Source: Deltaproteobacteria bacterium (GTDB lineage: Bacteria; Bdellovibrionota_C; UBA2361; SZUA-149; JADZAE01). From it: a stretch of DNA of 64,000 nucleotides. Below, in pieces: positions 6,131-42,183 of the stretch. A program made the translations under genes and the position numbers. The stretch spans positions 39,622 through 103,621 of the forward strand of contig JADZAE010000077.1 in assembly GCA_020852715.1 (NCBI GenBank). The letters are read 5' to 3'. The notes below the pieces were generated by a model. The model had not been told where the DNA came from. It was given only the letters and a program-made list of their open reading frames with translations, and searched no databases. The stretch's first letter is position 1. The number at the start of each line of letters is the position of its first letter.

Positions 6131-6135
6131 CCGAG

Positions 6136-6169
6136 AAAAGGTGGAGATTGTCGCTAATCTCCACCTTTT
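6136..6169 (+). terminator. Rho-independent terminator (aaaaggtggaga / tctccacctttt, 12-bp stem).
   Basis: Perfect inverted repeat plus a T-run, 6 nt after the stop at 6128-6130. Confidence 0.7.
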
Positions 6170-6236
6170 AGGATTTAGCTTATCTCACTAACTTTAATAA
6201 TTTTCTGCTTCCTACTAATCTACATGTTTTCCGTAA

Positions 6237-6676
6237 ATTCAAATTCGCAAATCCGTCACTATCTGCTCTTTCGTTCATGTAAACCTTGACGAACAAAAGG
6301 CGGCTTTTGGTTGTGCCAACACCTCCAACGATGATGTTCCCGATGATGAATGGACAAGGATATTCGAATCTCACAACGATTTAATTAGAACAGCGTTAAA
6401 CAAAGGAGAGACAGTTGTTCAAGAAACTGCCAGCACAACTCGAGAGTGGCGCGCTCGTGCTAGGAAAACAGCGCAGGATCTGGGTTTTGCTCCTTATGTA
6501 ATATTTGTTGATATTTCTGAGTCTGTTATCTGGAAAAGGTGGCAGCAAAACGCAATTAATCACTCCCGCTATCACACACCAAAAAATGTCCTCAGTGCTT
6601 ACATTCAGGAATTTGAAAGGCCTAGCGCTGACGAGAACGTGCTTCGTTACGACGAATCGATACCACTAATCAAGTA
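6237..6676 (+). pseudogene. C-terminal fragment of a P-loop kinase-like (AAA_33/zeta-toxin-like) protein. It has no start codon and no N-terminal P-loop.
   Basis: Open frame ...VHVNLDEQKAAFGCANTS...APYVIFVDISESVIWKRWQQNAINHSRYHTPKNVLSAYIQEFERP... with no ATG. The family assignment is tentative. Confidence 0.3.
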
Positions 6677-6828
6677 GCTAAATACTTTAAAGCTTACTGC
6701 TAGTTAATTTGATCAACGCACAAACTTCTTCTTCCTTAACCTAATAAATAGCTAATGCCTAACTAAACAATTTGTTATAAACTCTCGGTGTCGCATTTTT
6801 CTAATCCGAACATAAGAAAATTTGAAAT

Positions 6829-7327
6829 ATGAAACTCTTCAACAAAACCGTTCTGATGGCCACAGCTTTAGGGACGGTATGCCTGGGTGCTTTCGCATCT
6901 AATACGTCTGCCGAAAAAGTATGCGTCAATAGCAGCGGAGTTCTATATTATCGCTCTACTACTGCATGTCCGTCCGGGCAAAGAGATGTTACGGCATCAA
7001 TTATTGGACAAACTGGATCAACAGGCGCAACTGGGTTAATTGATCCGTCAGGTTGAGTCGTTTATACGAAATCTGATTTAGGCACTCTTTTCGATTCTCC
7101 TCCCTACACAGCAAGCGTTTCTAATGATTGCGTCGTTGATGTCTCTCCGGATTATTATATGTTGACATGGGGATTCACTTCCTCTGCTTCCGGAAGCGCC
7201 ACGCCAAGCAAAGCTAACTTAATTTATAATTCTTACTATGCTACAGGAATTGATGTGATGGTGACAAACAGCACCGATCAAACTGTGAACGTCAGAGTGG
7301 TTTGTTGCCCAGGGCCAGTAACTAATT
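6829..7327 (+). pseudogene. Secreted protein with a signal peptide and G-x-T triplets (GQTGSTGATG), interrupted by an in-frame TGA at 7054-7056.
   Basis: MKLFNKTVLMATALGTVCLGAFA... then TGA, then the same frame continues VVYTKSDLGTLFDSPPYTASV...VVCCPGPVTN*. A collagen/BclA-like short triplet stretch. Confidence 0.4.
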
Positions 7328-7731
7328 AGCCCCCCGATGACCGTCTGCCTGGTACCGGGTGCCAAAATAGACGCAGATGTCCGCTTGGTAGCGGGTGCTA
7401 GTATAGAGGCCAAGTGAGCGAACCAGCAAATATGGAACACAAAGCACCACACTCACCTTAGATCGACTTCATCACCTAAAATCAGGCTAACTACATCACA
7501 ATAAATTTGCTAATTGCCGCTCTTCAACTAAATTTAAATAGAGAACTCCACTAGAACTGCAAATTCCAACTCCAATGAGGCTTATCGGTAACCTGGATCT
7601 TCTTAGATGCGAAAATCAAGCGCCATAAAATTAAAAATATTATATTCTTAGGGGTTTGCGACTATCGGCGCCGAAGATACCGGGTGCTAGTTTGCGGCTG
7701 GGGTTTGAGGGGAGCGGGGGTTAATGTTTAG

Positions 7732-9648: not shown

Positions 9649-11555
9649 ATGTTAAGAAACTTGATTGACATCACAATTATTGTTCTGGTCTCGCTCGCCT
9701 GCTTTTCTAATACATTAGAAAATAGCTTTCATTTAGATGATTTCTACAGAGTGCAAGATAATCCAGGCATACAAAGCATAGCTCCTCTTTGGCGCCATTT
9801 CGTAGAGCCACGCCCCATGTCCACGCTCGATAGGATTAAGCAGTTTCGCCCATTATTGCCGCTAACGCTATCATTTAATTATTATTTTCGCGGTGAACAC
9901 ATAGCCGGTTATCATCTAGTAACCTTGGCTTTACAAACCATCACAACAATCTTTGTATTTTTATTTCACCTTGAGCTCTTAACACGCTGGGTCGGTAACG
10001 CCGACGAGCAAAAGGGACGGAGCAATGAACTCATCGCTTTTTTGGCGGCGCTTACTTTTGCCATTCATCCTGTTTCCGGAATACTGGTTAATTATATTTG
10101 TGCCCCCGACTTAATTCTCATGCAGTTTTTTATGATACCAACGCTTTTGATATATGCACGCATGCGCCGCAGGGTAGAAAACTCCCTGCTAAGCTGGATT
10201 AGTATCTTCAAACCAAACCTCCTTTCCATCTTGTCCAAAACAGACACGGCCATGCTCCCGGCAATTATCTTTTTATTTGAAATATTTTTAAACAAAAAAA
10301 CTTAAAAGAGATCAGCCCATATCTACAAACTCTGCCTATCGCTATCGCCATTTTTTGCTATTTTGCATATACCAAATATTATTTGAAATTTTCCGATTTC
10401 GAAAACGTCGTCAACACCCATGGAGCAGCATTTGATTATTTCAAACCTCAACTAGCTCTGCATCTTTTTTATTATCTACGCAATTTCTTCTGGCCCTTCT
10501 ATTTGCGGCAGTTACCAATGATCGACACCGAAACAGCGCTATTTCACGCACAAACCGTAATTGGTGCTATTTTTATACTCCTAACATTATTGATTGCGCT
10601 GCGCGCTTGGAACAAACAGCCAATTATTTCCTTTTGTATATTATCATACTGGGCACCACTTTTCCCGGCAACTTCATTTCTGCCGTTTCATCACTTGATA
10701 GTTGACTATCGGCCATATCCAAGCAGCGTGTTTTTATTTCTGCTACTTGCATATTTAGCCCAGCGATATTTGCCCAACAAAGCATTTATTTCAATAATGC
10801 TAAACTTTATTGTTTTCATAGCTGCCGCCAGCTATTTTCATAACTACAATTGGCGCACTGAGGCAACCCTTTGGACACAGAGTGTGAAACACGGAGCCGA
10901 CGCCACAGCACACATGAATTTAGCAATGTCAATTAAAGATAGAGACGATCCGCGTGTGGAGTATTATTTCCGCGAGGCTTTAAGAATGGCACCGAGGTTC
11001 GCTCTAAGGAATATCAATTTGGGGCTATTATTGCTCGATAAGAATAAGTAAGAAGAGGGGCTCTGGTATTGCCGAAACGCTGTTACGCTAGCCCCGGGCT
11101 GGGGGCAAGTCCACTATTGGCTTTCACAATGCTATAGCAAAGTAGGGGATAGTAAAAATGCATGCTACTCGGCGCTAAGAGCAACCCGACTTGATTCGAA
11201 AAATATCAGTTATCTTCATCGCGCCGCTTTTTTAGTCCAGCAATTTAATGACTACAAGCAAAGCTTAAATCTCCTCCAAAGCGTACCAAATGGCTACCAG
11301 GACGCCCTTTTTCTCAAAGCTTTTGCTGCACAAATGAGTAATCAAAATCAATTAGCGATTAACGCCTATACAGAACTTCTGAACCGACAACCCGAACATA
11401 TGCAGGCCAACTTTAATCTCGGCTATACTCTGATGATAGAAGGGAACTACGCAAAAGCAATTCCATACTTTCAAAAAGCCCTAGAACTCAAACCCGACTA
11501 TGATAAAATTCATAGTTATCTTAGCCGCTGCGCAGATGAGCTAAAGACTCGCTGA
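9649..11555 (+). pseudogene. TMTC-like DUF1736 + TPR-repeat GT-C glycosyltransferase, disrupted by a frameshift near 10306-10382 and an in-frame TAA at 11049-11051.
   Basis: FHLDDFYRVQDNPGI...YRPLLPLT...GYHLVTL (DUF1736 signatures). TPR repeats continue through the TAA (LLLLDKNK*EEGLWYCRNAVTLAPGWGQVHYWL...) into ORF 11334..11555. Confidence 0.75.
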
Positions 11556-11757
11556 CTGATAGACCAATCCCCAAAGGATATACGACTTCATCGTAAGTAG
11601 GTGATTGCTTCCACGCCTGATCCCAAACCAAAGCAATGTGCAACCCAATCAAACAACAACCGATTAAAACAATCGCGAAACAGTTTTTACCCAAGAGTTC
11701 TAATTTCAGTAGAATTAACTTCCACACATTAAAATAGATTTTACTTAAATGTTTCAA
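11521..11757 (-). pseudogene. Truncated N-terminal fragment of a second PMT/ArnT-like glycosyltransferase (paralog of 7732..9618).
   Basis: LIGLHIALVWDQAWKQSPTYDEVVYPLGIG aligns with SFIAFHVGLVFDQARRQSATYDEPVYASSGY of the intact neighbour. It covers only about 78 codons. Confidence 0.4.
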
Positions 11758-13113
11758 CGCCTAACCTCGCAACTGACGAAAATGGTATTACTAGGAAGTT
11801 ACAAAAAATATATTCTCAAATTATCCGTGGGGTATATTCATAACAAAAGCCACAATAGTGTTAGTGGGCAAAGCAATAACGCCACACTGATAACAACATT
11901 TAACCATGCCGAAAACCCTTAAACTTGCTCCAAACATTTCAAAAACAACACTTGTGCCCAGATACTAATAATAATCTAGATCACCGCAAATGCTGCTAGA
12001 GCAAATCCTGACGCTGGACCTGATCTAGTAAATAAATCTTGCCTAAACCAAGCAATTTCTAAAACAATAAGCGGTAATATCTAAATTACTGGAACGCTAC
12101 TCCATGCCATGACCGCTCTAATATTGTCTTTTGATCCTGTTCCGCCTATCCAAGTTCCGGTTCAACGAATTAAGATGCTAGCAATATATAGCTAAATTAT
12201 TCCACCTAAAGGGCCACTAACGGCATAACCAAAAACTATCATCGGCCATTCCAGAGTGTCTCCTAAATCCCTGACGCTGGCGCGATCAATGGCCTTGCTA
12301 AATCCATCTAAAGCTGCCAATAATAAAACAAACCGAGTAGGGTTTGTATCTATTATCAGCTAAATAGTAGCTCGTGGCTTAAGTCAGATAGATATCCAAG
12401 GATTTAATGTTTGCTCAACTGTGTTTTCCATTTTAATCTCTCAATCAGTTAAACAACCAATTAATTAGACTTAAATGCCACAACTGGGAACAACGTTTAA
12501 CACTGACATAGCATCTGCTCCACAAAGCTATAAAATGCTCTGAACGCTAACATCCAACCATGGAGAAGATAAGTTATAATGGGCACGCCACGCCTTGCGC
12601 TTATTTATTTGTCCTCTATATAGCATTATGCCCGATAAGGTTTCTTATCAGGCATAGCCCTCGGCTGCCCGGCTATAGATAGACATATATAATAGTAGTC
12701 CGGTTTTCGTCCAAGGGGTAAAGTTAAGACTTTTTTGCCCCAAATCAAAAGGGCAAAAGTCACAGAGGACCTCCAAGCAAAAAAACAATCGGCATGTTGT
12801 GCGCTCCATTATGTGCGCGAGTAACTACTAAGCACTCTGACACGACTAGCGCACGACATGCCAAACATGAATTAATCATTTGCTTAAGACGCCAAAATCG
12901 TAGCCATAAAAATTAACGGGCACCCTAAGCAAATATATATCATTCCCAGGAAATAAATTATTTTTTTACTAAAAAGCACAAATGCTTTCTATCTTTGTCC
13001 TAAGGGAATGGTTATCTCCATTGATCGCTACTTAATTCGAATAAGAGCCCTTACATCAATGGCATCTTGCCTACGCCATGAAATATTCATCTCAATATCG
13101 GGCCGACATTCAT

Positions 13114-21281: not shown

Positions 21282-22739
21282 ATGTGGGGTTCTTTCAAAA
21301 TATCTTGTGCGGTTCTGTTAGGAGTCTTCAGCCTGGGTGTAATTTTTATCTTATCCCCTGCTCTAGCTCAAGCCGATGCGCTGGTTAGTGAGGTCAATAG
21401 TAACGGCCGGATTATCACACTAACTGTTAACTATAAGCCGAGCAAAGAAGCATGGGCTAATCATATTACTACTCAGGCAAAGATATTTTTGCAGGCGTTT
21501 GAACCGTATTTGGGAATTAATTTGCCGGCGTGGGCAAATAACCAGGTGGTTATTAATGGCTGCGACAGTTGTCAGGCGCGGCTTGATGGTGGACAGATTT
21601 ATGTGCAGTAAGTTGATACGCTTAAGTCTAAGCCAGCGTTGGTGATGCATGAGTTGGGACATTACTGGTATTATTATTGTCAGAACTCTGCGTGTCAGGA
21701 GTGATTGGTTGAGGGTATTACTAGCTTTATTTCGGTGATGCTCAGACGTGCGCATTTGTTGCCTAATGACTTTAGTTGTCGGGATGAAGTTAATCGTTGG
21801 TGGGGTTATGATTGGAATCTAACACCAGGCACTTCGTTAAAAGATGTTCCGCTTTGTCCGTTTGATGAGAGCAAGCGCAGTTTGATTTATTATAAATCGT
21901 TTCGCCTTCAGCATTTGATTTATTTTACTTTGGGAAAAACTCGTTACATCACCTTTTTAAGGAACCTAATCAACAAGCAGTTAAAAACTAATGCTGGAAT
22001 CATTGCTGAGCTTAATATATTGAGGCCAGTGGACTTAAATACTTTACTTACGGGTTGGGTATTTGGCAGGCAGTATTTGGGTTACAAGATGAGCGATTTT
22101 GCCAAGGATTACGATTCGGATGGTTTATCAAAGGTAGAAGAAATGGCGCTCGGGCTTTCGGATAATGTTTATGATGCTGATCGGGATGGAATTCCGGACG
22201 GTGCGGAGATACGAGCACTTAGAAATCCTAGAAAAACTGATGCTGATGGAGTTTCGCAGCTCTTGCGCTATGGTCCGTTTATTGACGGTGGGCAGCGGGA
22301 TTGGACGTATTTTAGTTATTCTACGGCGGATGATTCGGTCGATGATCAAGTCGGCCGGAGCTGGGCTGACATGACGAGGATGCAATATTATATTCAGGGG
22401 GGATATTTATTTATCTTAGTGAAGACAAGAGGCTACCCACCGCGTTCGTCCAATGTATTTTTTGATTTATTGATCGATACAGATAGGGACTATTATACAG
22501 ATGTAGAGTTTGCCTTCTTGCTAAATAATAAAGCTTACCCGTGGCAATATGTGGTGGATATAGAGAAATCATCCAATCCCACTGCTCTTCGCGCCGGGAT
22601 AGCCCGCTACATAGAGATGAAGATTCCTCTCTCCAAAATCCCAGTTTCCGACTTCCAAGTCTTACCGATTATACGTAACAGCCAAACCGCCACCAACCTA
22701 GATCAGTGGAGCACCTGGATCCCTACCAGCCTCCCATAA
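21282..22739 (+). pseudogene. Secreted HExxH zinc-metalloprotease-like protein (signal peptide, HELGH). Interrupted by an in-frame TAA (21609-21611) and TGA (21702-21704).
   Basis: 21282 and 21705 are in the same frame: ...GGQIYVQ*VDTLKSKPALVMHELGHYWYYYCQNSACQE*LVEGITS... C-terminal region has Asp-rich Ca-binding-like repeats (DSDGLS, DADRDGIPDGAE). Confidence 0.55.
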
Positions 22740-22757: not shown

Positions 22758-22853
22758 CTGGTGTAGGGCACCAATGATAGCAATCCACATCTAATTCTTA
22801 TAAGGGGTTACCTAACTTACTCACCTTGGCTTCAGGTGCAGGGCCCCAGCGGG
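22758..22853. repeat. REP-like palindromic repeat cluster A: two inverted units (gctggtgtagggcaccaa 22758-22775; caggtgcagggccccagcggg 22834-22853).
   Basis: Family consensus near CTGGTGCAGGGCACCA (GGTGC-N3-GCACC palindrome). It recurs in clusters B, C and D and at about 42008-42030. Confidence 0.55.
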
Positions 22854-24553: not shown

Positions 24554-25918
<1,365 letters not shown>

Positions 25919-26071
25919 TTACAAACCAAAAGCTTTGCACCCGGGCGGGGTTATATAGGTGGCTATAGTATATGATATGTTGACTTAAACAAGATCCTGC
26001 TATGTTTAGATTATAAATTTCTTAATAATGGGAAGCTCTAAATGTATTTGGATTGGAAATATACGACAGAA

Positions 26072-26111
26072 GGAGGTTTTGAACCTATACGGCCCCATAG
26101 CCAAAACCTCC
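26072..26111. repeat. Hairpin H1 (GGAGGTTTT-N22-AAAACCTCC), 15 nt downstream of the stop of minus-strand gene 26126..26540.
   Basis: The same arm sequence occurs at 26792-26833 after the paralogous cassette. Confidence 0.5.
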
Positions 26112-26125
26112 TCCCCCATTTCGTT

Positions 26126-26540
26126 TTACTTTGCGGCAGTTACAGCGAGTGGCTGTCGCTTTTGCTCGAGTAATTTGGACCTCAATACACTGAGTTCCTG
26201 ACTGAGCTGGAGCTTCTCCTCCGTAAGCAAATCAACTTCTTCATTAGCAGCTTTGATTTGCTTTTCTACCTCCTCCCCTTTCAGCGAGTGAGCGATGGCC
26301 AGCCTCTGCCATTTGGGAAAGTCATACCACTGCGTACCTTCGTCCATCTTCCGCACATACTCGCCGGACGTGGCATAGTGGTTCATCATTTCCTTATGCA
26401 GTTGGGTTACCCGGCTATAGCCTGCAGAAATCTGCTGCTCCTTCTACTGCACAGCCAACTGAGCCTTCTGCAGCTCAGTTTGCTTTTTTGTGCCATTTGA
26501 TTTGGCTCCATTGCCTTTGATACTGCCATTGCTTGTAATC
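26126..26540 (-). pseudogene. Small coiled-coil protein (cassette 1). Start at 26540 with a GGAGG RBS. In-frame TAG at about 26445-26447.
   Basis: MITSNGSIKGNGAKSNGTKKQTELQKAQLAVQ*KEQQISAGYSRVTQLHKEMMNHYATSGEYVRKMDEG...LLEQKRQPLAVTAAK. The ORF track shows only the part after the TAG (26126..26389). Confidence 0.4.
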
Positions 26541-26565
26541 ATTTATAACCTCCAAATAATAATAA

Positions 26566-26620
26566 TCCTAGCACGCTAGGCTTAGTAGATGAGCTGCACC
26601 TACTAAACCCAGCACGCTGA
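26566..26620. repeat. 55-bp palindromic element P, copy 1 (CCTAGCACGCTAGGCTTAGTAG-N11-CTACTAAACCCAGCACGCTGAT), 26 nt upstream of the cassette-1 start codon.
   Basis: An imperfect copy of the perfect palindrome at 27291-27345. It sits in the 5' UTR or promoter. Confidence 0.5.
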
Positions 26621-26791
26621 TAATATTAGAGTGGCGGTTAAATTAAATTTACCTATTGTTCCAACCTTAACTCCTTCTGCTTACGTAAGCAGAAAATCTG
26701 AACTTCTTAGTTCAAATCTTTCTTCTACCAATCTTATAATCTTCGTTTTTACTAGCTATCTGATAAAACAAACTAACAAATAATACTGCAG

Positions 26792-26833
26792 GGGGAGGTT
26801 TAAAACCAATTGCCGAGTGGCGAAAACCTCCCC
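26792..26833. repeat. Hairpin H2 (GGGGAGGTTT-N21-AAAACCTCCCC), 14 nt downstream of the stop of minus-strand gene 26847..27263.
   Basis: Paralogous to H1 at 26072-26111. Confidence 0.5.
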
Positions 26834-26846
26834 TTGCAGCATCTGC

Positions 26847-27290: not shown

Positions 27291-27345
27291 CCTAGCACTC
27301 TAGGTTTAATGGCTGACAATCAACCATTAAACCTAGAGTGCTAGG
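27291..27345. repeat. 55-bp palindromic element P, copy 2: perfect 22-bp arms CCTAGCACTCTAGGTTTAATGG / CCATTAAACCTAGAGTGCTAGG with an 11-bp spacer, 27 nt upstream of the cassette-2 start codon.
   Basis: Perfect inverted repeat read directly. The upstream regions of the two cassettes are also homologous (ctgcttacgtaagcagaaa...cttctacc). Confidence 0.6.
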
Positions 27346-27538: not shown

Positions 27539-27657
27539 CTAGTGCCCTACACCCACCTCATAGGACTCTCGTAGCTGGTGCAGGGCACCAATCTCTCAAT
27601 ATCCCTCAATCCTAACTCCCTAATATCTTGAATTAATTCTGGTGCAGGGCGCCAAAA
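27539..27657. repeat. REP-like palindromic repeat cluster B (units at 27539-27557, 27574-27591 and 27638-27657).
   Basis: ctagtgccctacacccacc; gctggtgcagggcaccaa; tctggtgcagggcgccaaaa. Confidence 0.55.
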
Positions 27658-30353: not shown

Positions 30354-30417
30354 CTGGTGCCTAGCACCCAATTCTTTATGCTTAAATCCCTTATACTTTT
30401 AGTGCCCTGCACCAAAG
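30354..30417. repeat. REP-like palindromic repeat cluster C (ctggtgcctagcaccca 30354-30370; tagtgccctgcaccaaag 30400-30417).
   Basis: Same family as clusters A, B and D. It lies upstream of the HD pseudogene and the Y1 transposase. Confidence 0.55.
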
Positions 30418-30502
30418 ATGGCCAAAGATACAATAGGCAGCCTTTTAAGAATTTTGATATGACCTACATGGCATTAATAAAGTCTTTTGAGGAATTTTCG
30501 TA

Positions 30503-31124
30503 ATGGACAATAGCACGATTATAGAAAAAATAAGGGATCATATAAGAGAAAAGTTCTCTGGAGAGGGATCTGGACATGACTGGTGGCATATTTATCGAGT
30601 GTGGAAAACTGCTGTTGCTATTGCTCAAAGAGAAGGCGCCGATTTATTTGTCGTGGAATTGGCCGCTCTTTTACATGATATTGCTGATTGGAAATTCAAT
30701 GGCGGAGACGATGAAGCAGGCCCTAAAATGGCAAGAGAATGGTTAGAAGGATTATGCGTAGAAGAATCAATTATCGTTTAAAGGCGCTGGGGTGAGCGCC
30801 TGTATGGCGACATTAGAAGGAATAGTTGTACAAGATGCCGATCGCTTAGATACCATCGGGGCTATCGGAATTGCTCGGGTATTTGCATACGGGGGGCATG
30901 CTAATCGCGAGCTCTATAATCCAGAGGAAAAGCCAAGCCTTCATCAGTCATTTGAGCAATATAAGAACAATAAAAGTTCTTCTATTAATCATTTTTATGA
31001 AAAGCTCTTACTTTTAAAGGACCTTATGAATACAAACACTGCAAAGGTATTAGCCGCAGAAAGACATCAATATATGAATGCCTATCTGGATAGATTCTTC
31101 CAGAAATGGGACGGAGTAGCGTAA
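30503..31124 (+). pseudogene. HD-domain phosphohydrolase (YedJ/YpgQ-like) with a single frameshift near 30762-30781.
   Basis: HDWWHIYRVWKTAVAIAQ...LLHDIAD (frame 2). Then IVVQDADRLDTIGAIGIARVFAYGG continues in frame 0. Confidence 0.65.
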
Positions 31125-31386
31125 TCAACATCGCAATCCATTACTAGATTAATAATCAGCAATATTTAAGTCTTTGTAAATATTATATGATTCTTTATTA
31201 TTGGCAATTTACAGCTAATAACTAACCGCATTTATAGGAAATGATGCTGCTGCAAAAAAACATTACTTCACCCACAAAAAGCTTTTACTATTAAATCAGG
31301 AAGTTGAACTCTTACATAAATTATTTCTTAAAAACATGAACTATTTTGCAATAATTTTCTAATTCTACACGACAATTAATAGGAAC

Positions 31387-31575
31387 GAGGAACGTTTAGT
31401 TCAGGTAGAGAGAAGAACCTTATTTAGGTTAGGATTAGGTTATTTGATGTTTGCTATTTCTTCTCGCTATTTGGATGATCCGCTAAGGGTTAATTGCTAT
31501 TTAGTATAAATTTAAAAACCCCAACGGGAGAACCTCGAAAAAATAAACTTGTTAAATAGCATCTAAACGTTCCTC
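31387..31575. repeat. 13-bp perfect inverted repeat (gaggaacgtttag / ctaaacgttcctc) bracketing 163 bp immediately upstream of the Y1 transposase gene.
   Basis: Read directly from the sequence. It may be a subterminal hairpin or the end of the element. Confidence 0.4.
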
Positions 31576-31604
31576 TCTTTTACGAAGTATTAATCAAAAT
31601 TTGC

Positions 31605-32441
31605 TTGCATAAACAGATGCCTAGAGTAAGAAAAATATATCCCAAAGATAGTATTGTCTTTGTGACGACAAGTACCAAAGACAATCTACCTTTTATCCCC
31701 AATATTCTTATTAATGCTATACTAGCAAGCATTATTGCACGTGCTCAATTTTTGTACGGTCAGCAAATTATTGGTTTTTGCTTTATGGCTAATCACCTCC
31801 ATATGATGATCAAGATCAATATACCAGATACCGCAAGCCGCTTTATTGGCTATATCAAATTTGAATCAGCAAAAGCTGTTAACCAACTACTCGGTAGAGA
31901 ATCGCACAATGTCTGGTGTTCAGGTTTCGATTCTCCTAAAGTTGTTACATACGATACAGTTATCGAAAAACTTAATTACATATACTTGAACCCCGTAAAG
32001 GCGCGCTTAGTAAATTCCATTGAAGAATATCCTGGACTGAGTTCCTGGGAGGCATTTTCACAGGGGCAAATCTGCAAAGAAGTAACTTGGATAAAAGTAT
32101 CAAGTATCACAAAATTAAGAACCACTAAAATGTCGATTGTCGAACAAAAAATGGAATTAAATAAGTTAATGAGCTGCAATGACAAAAAGTATAATTTTAA
32201 AATTTCTCCTAATGCTTGGCTGGAATGTTATCCCGAGATAAAACATCAAAAGCCTCACAATGTAATTAAGAAAATGATTAACCAAATTAAAAAAGCTGAA
32301 GAAGAATATAAAAAAGATAAGCCAAAAATATTTGGAGTTCTCAGGCTACAAACTCAAGAAATAAACGCCGAATATAAGAGCAAAAACAAGGAAGAAGAAC
32401 CTCATTTATTAGCTCTAATATCGCTCTCCGCGTGCATTTAA
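31605..32441 (+). mobile_element. Y1 HUH tyrosine transposase (IS200/IS605 TnpA-like / REP-associated RayT-like), 278 aa with a Lys/Glu-rich C-terminal extension.
   Basis: HUH motif ANHLHMMIKI and catalytic Tyr motif YIYLNPVKARLV. Flanked at a distance by REP-like clusters C and D. Confidence 0.7.
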
Positions 32442-32782
32442 TTAAGCGGCACAAGAACAATACTAACATTGCAAAGGAGGCATGGAAGTCAATAAAATTT
32501 GGAGTAAAAGCCGATCTTCTACCGGGCTACTACGCTCCCGGAGGGATTCTGCATAGCAACATTATTAATTTTAATGTCTCTACCCCACTAGATTTAATTT
32601 AAAACGAAAACATCATAAAGTATCAACTGCTACTAAACTATGCCTTTTAAAAGTTCGCAAGGACAGCCATTTAGCGGTCCAAATAAGGCGAATTTTAAAC
32701 TATTTCGTCAACCGCTCTAATCTTCTAGTCTTATTCTATACAACAAATTCACCATACTGCCTCTGATTCTTCACCCCTTTCC

Positions 32783-32845
32783 CCAGTGCCCCAGCAGACT
32801 GATAGATTTTCTCGCTGGTTTTCTCGCTGGTGCCCTGCACCAGCG
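32783..32845. repeat. REP-like palindromic repeat cluster D (ccagtgccccagcagactg 32783-32801; gctggtgccctgcaccagcg 32826-32845), plus short tandem repeats (ttttctcgctgg x2; gctctaggggt x2). Directly downstream of gcvP.
   Basis: Read directly. It probably also acts as the 3' hairpin of the gcv operon. Confidence 0.55.
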
Positions 32846-32865
32846 AAGCTCTAGGGGTCGAGGCT

Positions 32866-35715
32866 CTAGGGGTTGGTGACCTGCACCAACGTGCAGCAAA
32901 AGTGGCGGTCGCTGGAGACGGGGTCGATGCGGGAAACGGGGGGGAAGTAAGTTTTGTGTTTTAGGTATGGAAGCGGATAGGCTGCTTGTTCACGGCTGTA
33001 TGGGAACGGAAATTCGTTGACAATAAGGAGGTGCGCCGGGTGCGGAGCATTTTTTAGCGGACTATCGGCCGCCTTCACTCGACCACTTTCGATATCTGCA
33101 ATTTCCCCACGAATCGCTATCATCGCTGCTACGAAGCGATCAAGCTCTTCCCTGCTTTCACTCTCCGTAGGTTCAACCATCAGTGTCTCCACTACAGGGA
33201 ATGACACCGTAGGTGCATGAAATCCATAGTCCATCAGCCTTTTTGCTACATCAGTAACGTCAACACTAACGGTTTTTTTGAAATTTCGTAAATCTAATAT
33301 ACACTCATGGGCCACTAACCCCTTTTCCCCCTTGTAAAGAACAGGAAAATATTTTTCTAAACACGCCGCTACGTAGTTCGCATTCAATATAGCTACTGCC
33401 GTAGCCTGACTCAGACCCTCTCTTCCCATCATGCGAATATAAATCCACGGGATTGTCATTATGCTTGCCGAACCCCATGGGGCAGCCGACACGGTTCCCA
33501 TCGATTTCTCTCCCCCCACCTTCACCAACGGGTGACACGGCAAATATTTTGCTAAAATTTTCTTTGCTGCTATCGGCCCTACTCCCGGGCCTCCTCCACC
33601 ATGTGGAATAGCAAATGTCTTATGTAAATTAAGATGACAAACATCCGCGCCAAAATCCCCCGGACGACAATACCCAACTTGGGCATTCATATTTGCCCCA
33701 TCTAAATACACTAAACCCCCCGCATCATGTACCATTCGGCAAACTTTTTTTATTTCTCTCTCAAACACTCCATGTGTCGACGGATAAGTGATCATTATCG
33801 CCGCCACTTCCTCTTTGTATTGCCGCAACTTTTCCCCTAAATCACTAACATCTATATTACCGTCAATATCGCATTTTACATGCACAGTTTCTAATCCAGC
33901 CAAGCTTGCACTTGCCGGATTCGTTCCATGAGCCGACGCAGGAATCAAACATAGCGTTCTTTCTCGCTCTCCTCTATCTATAAAATAACTACGAATAAGC
34001 ATCAGCCCGGCATACTCCCCTTGCGACCCGGCATTTGGCTGTAGCGACACACAGTCCATCCCCGTAATTTCGGCTAAATAATTTTCTAATTGGCTAAATA
34101 ACTCCCCGTAACCCCTTGCCTGCTTCTCTGGCACAAATGGGTGAAGCGCAGCAAATTGCGGCCAGGATAAGGCAAGCATGGAAGCACTAGAATTTAACTT
34201 CATTGTGCACGAACCTAAGGCAATCATTGAATTAGCCAGCGAAATATCCTTATCTTGGAGCTGTCTCAAATATCTAAACACCTTTGTTTCGGAGTGGTAA
34301 CTATTAAACACTTCATTTGTTAAATAAGAACTCTGCCGCTTAAATTGCACCGGCATCTCAATCGGAGTCGCCAGACCGTCCAGCACATCCTTAACTTGAA
34401 TTTTATCGTCACCAAAGCATTGAATAATTGCAACTATATCTTCAGCTGTCATTGTTTCATCAGCAGATATATAAATAGCTGCCGAGCTATAACGAAAATT
34501 AATTTTCTTGCTCTCTGCCTGTGCTTTTATTTTCGCTAGCTGTTCTCCGCTCGCAGTAATCTGTAGAGTATCAAAAACAAACGAGTTGTTTTCTTTAAAA
34601 CCCAATCCGACTAACCGTTCTTTAATAAACTGTGCGATATTATATAATCGCTCTGCTATTTTCTTTATCCCCTCCGGGCCATGATAAACAGCATACATCG
34701 CTGCCAAAATGGCCAACAAAACTTGTGCTGTGCAAATATTGCTCGTCGCCCGTTCACGACGTATATGTTGCTCTCGCGTTTGTAGCGCCAAACGAAATGC
34801 TCTCGCCCCTTGCGCATCTTGCGCCAATCCCACCATACGGCCCGGCATCTCGCGCGCCAATTCTCCGCGCACAGCCATAAATCCCGCATGCGGACCACCA
34901 AATCCCATGGGCACACCAAAACGCTGCGCGCTTCCCACAGCCATATCTGCGCCCCACTCAGCCGGCGCCTTCAACATGCTAAGCGCCAGTATGTCGCAAG
35001 CACATGTGACCAGTATATTTTTCGCAGCAGCCTTTTTGCATAGCTCGGCATAGTCATTTACCTTCCCATCGCCGTCAGGATAAGAAACAAGAAGACCAAA
35101 CACCTCCTCATCAAAATAGGTATCTGTTAAGCTTGTTTCAATAACTTCAATTCCTAACCCGAAAGCCCTTGTTTTAACTACTGCTACTGTCTGGGGAAAA
35201 TGCTGTCCAACCAGCAAAAACCGTTTTCTATTTCCCGTGGCCACCCGATAGCATAAGGCCATCGCCTCTGCCGCTGCCGTTGCTTCATCCAACAAAGAAG
35301 CATTACTAATCGGAAAACCTGTCAGATCAGAAATCATCGTTTGAAAAACAAACAACGCTTCCAATCGTCCTTGCGAAATCTCCGCCTGGTAAGGCGTATA
35401 ATGCGTATACCAAGCAGGGTTTTCCAAAATATTTCGTTGTATTACTGCCGGCAGTATAGTTCCATAATAGCCTTGCCCAATGTAACTTCTCCAAAGTTCA
35501 TTTTTATCAGCTAATTTTCTTAATTCAGTCAAGGCTTCCTGTTCGCTAAGTCTTGCCGGCAATGATATTTCTTTGGTTAGGCGAATTTCCGCGGGAACAG
35601 TCCTATCGATCAACTCCTCTAAGCTAGCTAGGCCGAGAGTTTTCAACATCTGATCAATTTCTTTTTTATCGGGTCCCAAGTGCCGAGAAGAAAAGTCCGG
35701 TAAAAAATTACCCAT
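32866..35715 (-). CDS. gcvP: Glycine dehydrogenase (decarboxylating), single-chain P-protein of the glycine cleavage system.
   Basis: 949 aa. N-terminus FSSRHLGPDKKEIDQML. PLP-dependent core. Intact. Confidence 0.95.
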   Translation of the reverse strand: MGNFLPDFSSRHLGPDKKEIDQMLKTLGLASLEELIDRTVPAEIRLTKEISLPARLSEQEALTELRKLADKNELWRSYIGQGYYGTILPAVIQRNILENPAWYTHYTPYQAEISQGRLEALFVFQTMISDLTGFPISNASLLDEATAAAEAMALCYRVATGNRKRFLLVGQHFPQTVAVVKTRAFGLGIEVIETSLTDTYFDEEVFGLLVSYPDGDGKVNDYAELCKKAAAKNILVTCACDILALSMLKAPAEWGADMAVGSAQRFGVPMGFGGPHAGFMAVRGELAREMPGRMVGLAQDAQGARAFRLALQTREQHIRRERATSNICTAQVLLAILAAMYAVYHGPEGIKKIAERLYNIAQFIKERLVGLGFKENNSFVFDTLQITASGEQLAKIKAQAESKKINFRYSSAAIYISADETMTAEDIVAIIQCFGDDKIQVKDVLDGLATPIEMPVQFKRQSSYLTNEVFNSYHSETKVFRYLRQLQDKDISLANSMIALGSCTMKLNSSASMLALSWPQFAALHPFVPEKQARGYGELFSQLENYLAEITGMDCVSLQPNAGSQGEYAGLMLIRSYFIDRGERERTLCLIPASAHGTNPASASLAGLETVHVKCDIDGNIDVSDLGEKLRQYKEEVAAIMITYPSTHGVFEREIKKVCRMVHDAGGLVYLDGANMNAQVGYCRPGDFGADVCHLNLHKTFAIPHGGGGPGVGPIAAKKILAKYLPCHPLVKVGGEKSMGTVSAAPWGSASIMTIPWIYIRMMGREGLSQATAVAILNANYVAACLEKYFPVLYKGEKGLVAHECILDLRNFKKTVSVDVTDVAKRLMDYGFHAPTVSFPVVETLMVEPTESESREELDRFVAAMIAIRGEIADIESGRVKAADSPLKNAPHPAHLLIVNEFPFPYSREQAAYPLPYLKHKTYFPPVSRIDPVSSDRHFCCTLVQVTNP

Positions 35716-39364: not shown

Positions 39365-40309
39365 TTAACGGGATCTTTTAACTAAACTTAAAACTGATGT
39401 TCGCGGATTGAAGGACTCAACAATTATGCGTCGATCATCGATACGTGCTATCTCCGGCCCATGCACCGGCTCGCCACTGCCACGCGAAATCACCGAACCA
39501 ATTCTCAACTGCATCGGCTGCATACGGTGAGCAATAATCACACGATTCACACCCTCGTCATCATAAGCCGAGGCGTGAGCAGTGCCGCGTAATGCCCCTA
39601 ATACTATGATATCACCGCCGGCAATCAAATCAGCACCCGGGTTAACATCACCGACGACTACCAAACTAAAAGGACTCTCCAACTTCTGTCCTGAGCGTAA
39701 AGTCCCATAATAAATACGGGCATTGGCATCTTCTTCGAACAATAAATCTTCGCCCAGAGACTGGGAAATCTGGTCAAAATAAGATTTTGTATTTACTTTG
39801 TTATTTATGTCTGCTTGAGCAGCGAAGCTTTTTGTAGACACTTCTGATTTCTTTGGTCGGAGGCTAAATGGCTTCAGATTTGACTCTGATCCTGAAACCA
39901 ACTGTTCGATTTGATCGGCTAAAGAATTTGCTGAAACTCTTGTCTGCACGCCTGGAGGAGGCTTGATCGCCTTTAGACGTGACTCGCGCTTTCTGCGCGG
40001 CGTGATCTCGATATCATAGCTATTTTTTAAAAGCTCTTCGAGTTCCTTACCTTGCTCCGTAGTTGGTAAACGATCAAGCCACTCAATTGAAACCTTAGCT
40101 CCACTTAAAAATGTTTTTCTCTCCGCTAGAAAAGGTTTTAACTCCGCTAAAATATTTTCCCACTCGGCACGTCCATCAATGCGCAAGACCACACCATCTT
40201 CTGTGCCGGTAGCATTAATTAAGCGCCCGTGATGTAAATCCCCACGCGCAGCTAAAGCAGAAACATCAGCGATATTTTCCGAACCATCATTATGTTGATC
40301 TTCACGCAT
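39365..40309 (-). CDS. minC: Septum site-determining protein MinC.
   Basis: 314 aa. C-terminal beta-helix region ...LVVVGDVNPGADLIAGGDIIVLGALRG... Confidence 0.88.
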   Translation of the reverse strand: MREDQHNDGSENIADVSALAARGDLHHGRLINATGTEDGVVLRIDGRAEWENILAELKPFLAERKTFLSGAKVSIEWLDRLPTTEQGKELEELLKNSYDIEITPRRKRESRLKAIKPPPGVQTRVSANSLADQIEQLVSGSESNLKPFSLRPKKSEVSTKSFAAQADINNKVNTKSYFDQISQSLGEDLLFEEDANARIYYGTLRSGQKLESPFSLVVVGDVNPGADLIAGGDIIVLGALRGTAHASAYDDEGVNRVIIAHRMQPMQLRIGSVISRGSGEPVHGPEIARIDDRRIIVESFNPRTSVLSLVKRSR

Positions 40310-41621: not shown

Positions 41622-42183
41622 ACAACCTCCAACGTTTTAGACCCGCCGGTCATCATTGCTACCAGCAATGCTGGTAAAAACCTCAAGGCATAAAAATATC
41701 ATAGGCGCCATTGATATGCAAACAGTTGCCCAAAATAACCGGCTATTATTGCACCTAGCTGTGCACTATTAGGAATGTTCCGGCACAATAAATCAACTTA
41801 AAGAGCTACGTATTGGAAATTTTTAGGTCAGTGGAGTTGCTAAGCCTTACGCCCGAGTAGTGGAGTTTACTAGCTGTAAATGAGCAGTTTCTCTGTGGTC
41901 ATGAGGTTTAGCTAGTCTGGCTACGATTTTGAGGGGAAGACGAGGAAAGCGAGCGGCGAGCACCAATCGGAAGCGCAAAGGGGCTTTCGGCAGTATTGGT
42001 TTTCATGTCCAGTGCCCCTTGTCTAGCAGAACAATATTTTGGTTAAGTGTAGTGAACTACATGCGGAGCGGAGCCGCGATGGTTGACGAAGTATTTACCC
42101 AAAAGCGTTCTCAGATAGAAGTAAATAAGCAGCGCAGGGCCGAAAGTTGACAAAGTATCTGCCCAAAATCGCTCGCTTCCGTC

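Follow-up and report, generated by a model that had tools for sequence, protein, structure and literature searches.

Does the Y1 HUH transposase gene in a 64,000-nucleotide stretch of a Deltaproteobacteria bacterium genome (GenBank assembly GCA_020852715.1, contig JADZAE010000077.1, forward-strand positions 39,622 to 103,621; hereinafter the window, numbered from its first nucleotide) form, together with the short palindromes scattered around it, a system of the kind that pairs RayT enzymes with repetitive extragenic palindromes (REPs), and in what state is that system? A first-pass annotation of the stretch had proposed such a link between gene and palindromes. Our answer, to which we attach a probability of roughly 0.7, is that the locus is a decaying REPtron-like unit of an apparently undescribed clade of long RayT-like proteins. 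It is a recognizable variant of the known REP/RayT arrangement and not a new kind of system.

The open reading frame (ORF) and the two catalytic motifs reported for the gene product were confirmed. The frame at 31605-32441 is present in the ORF list with 278 aa, its HUH motif reads H60-L61-H62 (codons 31794-31802), and the catalytic tyrosine of the YxxxNPV(K)A motif is Y121 (codon 31977-31979), embedded in YIYLNPVKA. The Pfam Y1_Tnp model (PF01797) matches the window ORF with 31.9 bits against a cut-off of 23, placing it in the Y1 HUH superfamily, and likewise matches 10 of 11 family members. An ATG start at 31617 agrees with the N-termini of relatives and with the 274-aa NCBI protein (P0001), the window product being deposited as MCC6933721.1 with that length. 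When RayT and IS200 models were compared, the best NCBIfam model was REP_Tyr_transpos (the RayT equivalog, NF047646), with 67 bits over residues 8-143 (67.1 bits for the ORF and 67.5 for the reconstructed protein described below); the IS200 model gave 20.9 bits against a cut-off of 55, and REP_Tyr_transpos outscored the other NCBIfam models in all 11 aligned members. Similarly, the best PDB sequence match was the Escherichia coli TnpA-REP structure 4ER8 (E 4.7e-6, profile positions 1-139), in an alignment spanning the HMH/HLH motif and YIYINPVK, with IS200-type transposases reaching only E about 0.014. Fold comparison also ranked 4ER8 best, closer to TnpA-REP than to IS200-type TnpA. Together, these comparisons support a Y1 HUH enzyme that is nearer RayT than IS200 TnpA. 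The columns of Y121, Y123, N125 and P126, which make up the Y---NP signature, are invariant in sequence alignment A2, and the motif set NHLH, W[CQ] and YIYLNP with a 'PGLSSW' proximal tail fits class 2 (Y---NP) of Quentin et al. 2018 (PMC6006769); it is because of this motif and tail that we place the family in class 2.

A profile built from 11 sequences recovered about 363 representative clusters (50% identity) at E <= 1e-30, with cluster representatives nearly all of 315-335 aa and matched end to end; a single-sequence search found only 12 close relatives, which, other than the window product, measure 320-333 aa. A second database contributed 64 members, all from metagenomes or metagenome-assembled genomes (MAGs), several of which carry the JGI label 'REP element-mobilizing transposase RayT'; clusters at 90% protein identity each occur on only 1-2 contigs. 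The N-terminal ~150 residues have the TnpA-REP fold, and a conserved C-terminal region of ~180 aa is common to the family. The C-terminal half yielded no Pfam match in any of the 11 members, even at E <= 1, and residues ~150-300 are confidently modelled without a specific structural match. Three more members (MCC6932020.1, MCC6932107.1 and MCC6932270.1) have their full length and share 46-51% identity with the window copy; judging by their neighboring accession numbers, these three intact proteins and MCC6933721.1 probably belong to one MAG. Paralogues as divergent as this, if they do come from one MAG, follow the class 2 pattern.

This family also explains the odd length of the window product. 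The first-pass annotation had remarked on 278 aa with a K/E-rich tail, longer than IS200 TnpA. The protein is indeed longer, by the conserved C-terminal region, but both the figure of 278 aa and the tail result from a 1-nt frameshift: alignment with relatives identifies the ORF as a truncated form of a ~328-aa protein, with what amounts to the loss of 1 nt at about 32388-32390. In all full-length relatives the C-terminus can be aligned with a 56-aa ORF at 32432-32602, and the columns of A286, G304 and P308 in this displaced part are invariant. Reading 31617-32390 and then 32390-32602, with base 32390 read twice, reconstructs a protein of 328 aa that spans the junction gap-free against all relatives (SKNK|GRRTSFISS versus SKRxGRRTxFISS), which themselves read SKRxGRRT in a single frame at this site. 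Programmed -1 frameshifting was considered and is unlikely because the site has no slippery X XXY YYZ heptamer and every relative is a single ORF. The frameshift cuts the conserved C-terminal region, and the copy is therefore probably inactive; the deposited 274-aa 'transposase' is accordingly an annotation of the truncated product.

Turning to the palindromes, GGTGCNNNGCACC has 3 exact matches in the window against 0.03 expected, and the 15-mer with up to 2 mismatches has 9 against 1.9. Curation resulted in nine units with the core TGGTGCAGGGCACCA, lying in four intergenic clusters (A to D) between 22.7 and 32.9 kb, and none in the remaining 54 kb of the window. The unit core, YTGGTGC-AGG-GCACCAR (also given as YTGGTGCAGGGCACCAR), comprises a 6-10-bp stem and a 3-nt loop, and hairpins are predicted in 7 of the 9 units. 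D1 is by far the strongest (DNA fold -12.3 kcal/mol, z -6.9), the others folding at -6.8 to -1.2 kcal/mol; B1 and B2 make an inverted REPIN-like doublet, and the 63-nt B1-B2 stretch folds at -10.2 kcal/mol (z -2.4). The palindrome is non-random. Its position in gaps between ORFs, as had been claimed, holds in a crude ORF tiling for every unit except D2, whose core (32874-32888) covers the last gcvP codons. The four clusters occupy 9 consecutive gaps of 38 (rough estimate, p about 0.01). Two further details of the first-pass annotation fell away. The units were said to occur in inverted pairs, whereas by the asymmetric 3-nt loop (AGG taken as +, CCT as -) clusters A, C and D consist of tandem pairs and only 27540/27576 is inverted; an additional unit near 42008-42030 proved to be a 10-nt half-match, CCAGTGCCCC. 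The unit flanks, tried as a second orientation marker, are symmetric (pyrimidine at -1, purine at +1), and the loop-based calls are soft. GTAG appears only incidentally, in A1, in B1 and in the flank of B2. Searches with Rfam found no family matching the region, the sole window match being a tRNA gene at 47601-47672. Among the matches listed from genome contigs, those of the exact 16-mer CTGGTGCAGGGCACCA were single chance occurrences in GC-rich genomes of unrelated organisms, with none of these genomes matched more than once, an uninformative outcome. The exact window core was absent from 227 kb of related loci, and for this reason we regard the units as lineage-specific; the absence also agrees with the rule by which every RayT is paired with a repeat of its own. 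In sum, the palindromes behave as REP-type units, being extragenic, clustered, hairpin-forming and lineage-specific.

Because the window alone cannot show a link between gene and repeat, we fetched related loci (designated by L numbers) and applied a shuffle test limited to -380..-50 upstream and +190..+300 downstream of each gene. An inverted pair of units brackets the gene in 8 of 9 independent related loci, each with p <= 0.055; in the ninth, L123, the units are palindromic and their orientation ambiguous. On the coding strand the upstream units have the sequence CTGG..., and its reverse complement forms the downstream unit. Right arms lie at +195 to +262 past the stop codon, and left arms mostly lie at -91 to -212 (the best-scoring copy of L121 is at -359). 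Most units of the relatives begin with CTGG, some end in CTAC, and CTGGTG is common to the window and its closest relatives (L181, CTGGTGTCGGACGCCAAA; L123, CTGGTGCCAGGCGC). In the window D1 begins 222 bp past the gene stop, within the right-arm interval, with D2 at +270, and the foot of D1, CGCTGGTGCC, resembles the units of the closest relatives, L181 (a relative at 48% identity) and L123 (one at 50%), and also those of L126 and L134. L181 has, in addition, a third, degenerate intergenic copy 8.5 kb from the gene. On this comparative evidence the proposed gene-repeat link appears sound, and we accept it for the family and for D1/D2. A candidate conserved non-coding element in the ~220 bp between stop and right arm was discarded: an alignment of eight loci has 35% column identity, with nothing conserved. 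Separately, L121:2260-2450 contains four copies of a longer composite repeat (AAAACTAGTAGGGGGATACTAATAAGCCGGGGTATATTT...) in an irregular array, with a single inverted GTAGGGGGAT downstream. Tandem duplications are found in cluster D, namely TTCTCGCTGGT at 32809 and 32821 (period 12) and GCTCTAGGGGT at 32848 and 32863 (period 15), and partial-unit duplications (CGCTGGT) likewise occur upstream of the L126 homologue.

The claim that REP clusters flank the window gene on both sides held for the right side only. No left arm was found within about 380 bp upstream (restricted shuffle test, p about 0.76), and because of this the window fails the bracketing test that its relatives pass. The nearest upstream cluster, C, has the same orientation as D and is 1.2 kb from the gene, with a broken HD gene and a 492-bp spacer (30% GC) in between. 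A possible decayed remnant of the left arm, TTCTCGCT, repeats at 31461-31468 the 8-mer that precedes D1 (32809, 32821). With 70 residues cut, the left arm missing and most of the dispersed units unpaired, the window copy is probably dead.

Some relatives look more mobile. An L137-type unit of 1.36 kb (L137:600-1959, L138:212-1570, L139:427-1780; also L143 and L144) extends 5 nt beyond the left unit and 28 nt beyond the right one. Its copies are 98.7-99.6% identical across at least 3 different flanking contexts (L137/L143, L138/L144 and L139), with the identity ending at the units; the contigs derive from separate metagenome samples and may represent different strains. L141, L142 and L147 carry a second type of element, with 76% identity to the L137-type. 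None of the subclasses listed by Quentin et al. 2018 combines NHLH, W[CQ], YIYLNP and ~325 aa without the subclass 2.3 insertions, as judged by motif comparison with the published table (PMC6006769) and not by those authors' hidden Markov models. We entertain, tentatively and as the less probable option, that the ~325-aa proteins are an undescribed RayT-like subclass, with a conserved ~180-aa C-terminal region and units with a CTGG rather than a GTAG foot, whose members might span a series from autonomous element through domestication to decay: the multi-context 1.36-kb units of L137-type, the bracketed single copy of L181 with its gene-less copy, and the decaying copy in the window.

The fold and catalytic motifs of the enzyme, the hairpin potential of the units and the geometry conserved among relatives are direct observations, and a mechanism can be proposed for them by analogy with E. 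coli TnpA-REP and IS608 TnpA. The gene belongs to a ~325-aa clade of RayT-like Y1 HUH single-strand DNA endonucleases, and its product would recognize the cognate palindrome as a hairpin in single-stranded DNA. Cleavage beside the hairpin would be by Y121, by way of a 5'-phosphotyrosine intermediate, with H60 and H62 holding the metal, and rejoining or transfer of the strand would spread the palindromes. The best unit, D1, is found where relatives have their right arm, and the eight further, mostly degraded, copies are in three neighboring intergenic regions.

Several observations weigh against a decaying REPtron-like unit. The protein misses the curated NCBI RayT cut-off (67 versus 80 bits). 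In the profile alignment to 4ER8, WCEGYDSP stands opposite the E. coli segment WQPRFWEH. Of the five residues in contact with the GTAG guide (W94, Q95, E100, H101 and R104; PMC6006769), this segment contains the first four, and among these only the tryptophan is retained, R104 being outside the comparison. Only nine units were counted, none more than 10 kb from the gene, a high copy number across the genome being the hallmark of REPs; they are short and have no GT[AG]G foot. The two-sided inverted flanks of the REPtron geometry are missing from the window, and cluster C upstream has the loop orientation of cluster D downstream. The multi-context behavior of the L137-type is nearer that of an insertion sequence than of a domesticated RayT. 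Finally, an assembly error could account for the frameshift, in which case the gene would be intact.

These points feed three other explanations. The locus could be a defective autonomous insertion sequence, with a Y1 transposase and terminal inverted hairpins (5'-CTGG...CCAG-3'), the dispersed palindromes being solo ends or miniature derivatives. The near-identity of the L137-type unit in at least three contexts speaks for this, as do the better preservation of the gene-adjacent D1 relative to the degraded dispersed copies, the confinement of every unit to 10 kb around the gene, and the GC content of the gene (35% versus 44% for the window). Yet sequence and fold are nearer RayT, with Y---NP in place of Y---Q; no tnpB is present; each 90% cluster is on only 1-2 contigs; the four copies apparently from one MAG are 46-51% identical, against the ~99% typical of insertion sequences (PMC6006769, Table 1); and the three L137-type contexts may belong to different strains rather than being copies in one genome. 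We consider this explanation unlikely. By far the least probable, in our estimate very improbable, is that the palindromes have nothing to do with the Y1 gene and serve as protein-binding sites, transcript-end stabilizers or terminators. Units do follow gene ends (aguB, the gcvP end and the ORF at 21705-22739), C1 is weakly terminator-like, and classical REPs have such secondary roles; against this, 8 of 9 units lack a T-tract (C1 alone being terminator-like), no Rfam family matches, the four clusters are concentrated in the few consecutive gaps noted above, and D1 sits at the right-arm position of relatives with a CTGGTG foot as in the closest of them.

The third explanation accepts the REPtron-like unit and disputes its decay: the gene would be intact and the system active, the frameshift at 32388-32390 being an error of MAG assembly or consensus. 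A single missing base in the purine-rich stretch GCAAAAACAAGGAAGAAG would suffice, both halves keep the family-conserved residues without further stops, and the ORF-poor window could reflect indel errors. The coding share is only about 73% of the window in the crude ORF tiling, and long stretches (6131-7731, 11052-13113, 25895-26846 and others) are without ORFs of at least 90 aa; either a pseudogene-rich genome or an indel-rich assembly would produce this, and the choice bears on the reality of the Y1 frameshift. On the other side, decay is independently indicated by the absence of a left arm and by the degraded state of the dispersed units, the damage to the neighboring HD gene exceeds a single-base slip, and the three other members that apparently belong to this MAG have their full length. 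An intact gene is thus a possibility that we rate somewhat above the insertion sequence, though still doubtful, and a decaying REPtron-like unit remains the explanation that we prefer.

How does such a unit compare with described systems? It works like them, yet it lacks an NCBIfam score above the cut-off, the GTAG foot with most of the residues that read it, and two-sided inverted flanks in the window. The nearest reference is the E. coli TnpA-REP/RayT protein (YafM; PDB 4ER8) with its REPtron (PMC2817692, PMC3479197; subclass 2.2 of Quentin 2018). Shared with it are the HUH and Y---NP(VK) motifs and a 'P..SS(W/F)' proximal tail, the bracketing of relatives' genes by inverted cognate palindromes, and extragenic clustered hairpin units with one REPIN-like doublet (B1/B2). 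Unlike it, the family shows 19-20% identity and an extra conserved C-terminal region of ~180 aa, the window units are shorter (15-23 nt, 3-nt loop) with a CTGG/YTGG instead of a GT[AG]G foot, and the window left arm is missing and the gene frameshifted. Only some RAYT groups have abundant flanking repeats (Bertels 2017, PMC5581495). RAYTs are further characterized by low copy number, without near-identical duplicates in a genome; one family copy is present in the window, with three presumed paralogues at 46-51% identity, and the L137-type lineage has units more than 98% identical in 3 contexts. Subclass 2.6 (Bertels group 5; mostly Bacteroidetes, PMC6006769) is characterized by NH[LIV]H, WQ, an 'SS' tail, YIH[QN]NP, a median of 179 aa and a 21-aa alphaC-beta4 insertion, and its flanks hold atypical weak structures without GT[AG]G that have copies elsewhere in the genome (PMC6006769). 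The present family is like it in the NH[LIV]H and WQ type of motifs, the 'SS' tail and flanking structures other than GT[AG]G, and differs in its ~325 aa and YIYLNP (a comparison of motifs only). Class 3, with a CnGA foot and a Y----Q motif, mixes traits of insertion sequences and REPtrons (PMC6006769); the non-GTAG foot and the L137-type elements, which mix the same traits, recall it, whereas YIYLNP does not.

TIRYT proteins and their TIRtrons (about subclass 2.1), which have a terminal inverted repeat (TIR) consensus GGGGWSAS and a median of 238 aa, are common in 'delta' proteobacteria (PMC3733652). They too are longer RayT-like proteins with C-terminal extensions and terminal inverted repeats at fixed distances, and some of their repeats are self-complementary, in dimers or clusters and at moderate copy number. 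The window unit, in contrast, lacks GGGGWSAS, the family measures ~325 aa against the median of 238 aa, and, unlike subclass 2.1.2, no C-terminal helix-turn-helix or DnaA_C-like domain was detected in 11 members. With IS200/IS605 TnpA (class 1; IS608, ISDra2), whose hairpin ends are recognized as single-stranded DNA, the common ground includes the multiple, insertion-sequence-like contexts of one related lineage; the differences are Y---NP and not Y---Q, the lack of tnpB, and ends that are inverted repeats of each other.

Among the genes around the locus, the identities of aguA, aguB and gcvP were confirmed. D2 supplies the final 7 gcvP codons (LVQVTNP), the gcvP stop (32866-32868) lies in the adjacent GCTCTAGGGGT repeat, and homology to solved GcvP structures ends before D2, at ...DRHFCCT. 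Between aguB and the Y1 gene, an HD-domain gene (30503-31124) is broken: its N-terminal part (Pfam HD, 92 aa) stops at 30779-30781, and the remainder (SFKGAGVSACMATLEG...) continues in the +1 frame, seemingly a few residues short, which goes beyond a single-base slip. It was dismissed as a conserved partner or passenger, as the upstream neighbor is a DUF3108 gene in the closest relative and metK or an unrelated gene in others. The perfect 13-bp inverted repeat reported before the Y1 start exists (31387-31399/31563-31575, 163 bp between the arms) but is unrelated to the REP family; being unique in the window and unlike the units, it was rejected both as a REP part and as a repeated miniature element, and the 246-nt region around it has a moderate RNA fold (z -2.8). 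A second, unrelated palindrome family is represented by a near-perfect hairpin with 26-nt arms (CCTAGCACTCTAGGTTTAATGGCTGA/inverse) at 27291-27345 and a degenerate copy 724 bp upstream (26565-26620), the two bracketing ORFs without a Pfam match.

Table. Features of the RayT-like locus in the window, and units flanking the gene in related loci (distances relative to the gene)
Feature	Sequence	Position	Strand or loop	Remarks
RayT-like Y1 HUH gene, first frame		31617..32390	+	codons 1-258 of the reconstructed 328-aa protein
Frameshift site	AAC AAG|GAA	32385..32392	+	equivalent to a 1-nt deletion; sequence alignments A1, A2
Displaced C-terminal 70 codons	GRRTSFISS...LPGYYAPGG...	32390..32602	+	-1 frame; from homology of the 56-aa ORF
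Unit A1	TGGTGTAGGGCACCA	22759..22773	loop + (AGG)	REP-like unit, cluster A
Unit A2	AGGTGCAGGGCCCCA	22834..22848	loop +	degenerate; folding lost
Unit B1	TAGTGCCCTACACCC	27540..27554	loop - (CCT)	inverted relative to B2
Unit B2	TGGTGCAGGGCACCA	27576..27590	loop +	exact consensus; fold -5.3 kcal/mol
Unit B3	TGGTGCAGGGCGCCA	27640..27654	loop +	REP-like unit, cluster B
Unit C1	TGGTGCCTAGCACCC	30355..30369	loop -	9 bp past the aguB stop; fold -4.2 kcal/mol
Unit C2	TAGTGCCCTGCACCA	30400..30414	loop -	oriented as C1, D1 and D2; fold -4.0 kcal/mol
Unit D1	TCGCTGGTGCCCTGCACCAGCGA	32824..32846 (core start 32828)	loop -	10-bp stem, 3-nt loop; best preserved
Unit D2	GTTGGTGACCTGCACCAAC	32872..32890 (core 32874-32888)	loop -	fold -6.8 kcal/mol
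Half-unit	CCAGTGCCCC	32783..32792; second copy 42009-42018		degenerate; weak, 10-nt match only
Possible decayed left-arm remnant	TTCTCGCT	31461..31488 (8-mer 31461-31468)		156 bp before the start; weak
Locus L137	upstream CTGGAACGACCTTCC; downstream inverted copy	-91; +262		
Locus L135	upstream CTGGAGGGGGCCTAC; downstream inverted copy	downstream +216		two upstream copies
Locus L181	upstream CCTGGTGTCGGACGCCAAA; downstream inverted copy	-180; +243		
Locus L127	upstream TCTGGTACGGCCTTACT; downstream inverted copy	downstream +238		
Locus L183	upstream CAGGTG[AC]CACCCAC; downstream inverted copy	downstream +195		two upstream copies
Locus L121	upstream GTAGGGGGAT; downstream ATCCCCCTACCAG	downstream +233		four upstream copies
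Locus L134	upstream CCCGGGCTAC; downstream GTAGCCCGGCACCAG	downstream +247		
Locus L136	upstream CTGGAAGGA...; downstream CTGGAACCTCCTTCCAG	downstream +215/+223		

Taken alone, the window offers a modest result: a system of known type, in what is probably a dead copy. Work on REP/RayT systems has been confined almost entirely to Gammaproteobacteria, and the route from a selfish Y1 transposase to a domesticated RayT is still debated. The family to which this copy belongs is sizeable and has so far been seen only in metagenomes and MAGs; to its RayT-like core is added a conserved C-terminal region without an explanation as yet, and its units do not have the GTAG foot. Some members look like multi-context elements and others like decaying copies, and such a range may provide a natural series for following the co-evolution of enzyme and hairpin and the residues that read the foot.

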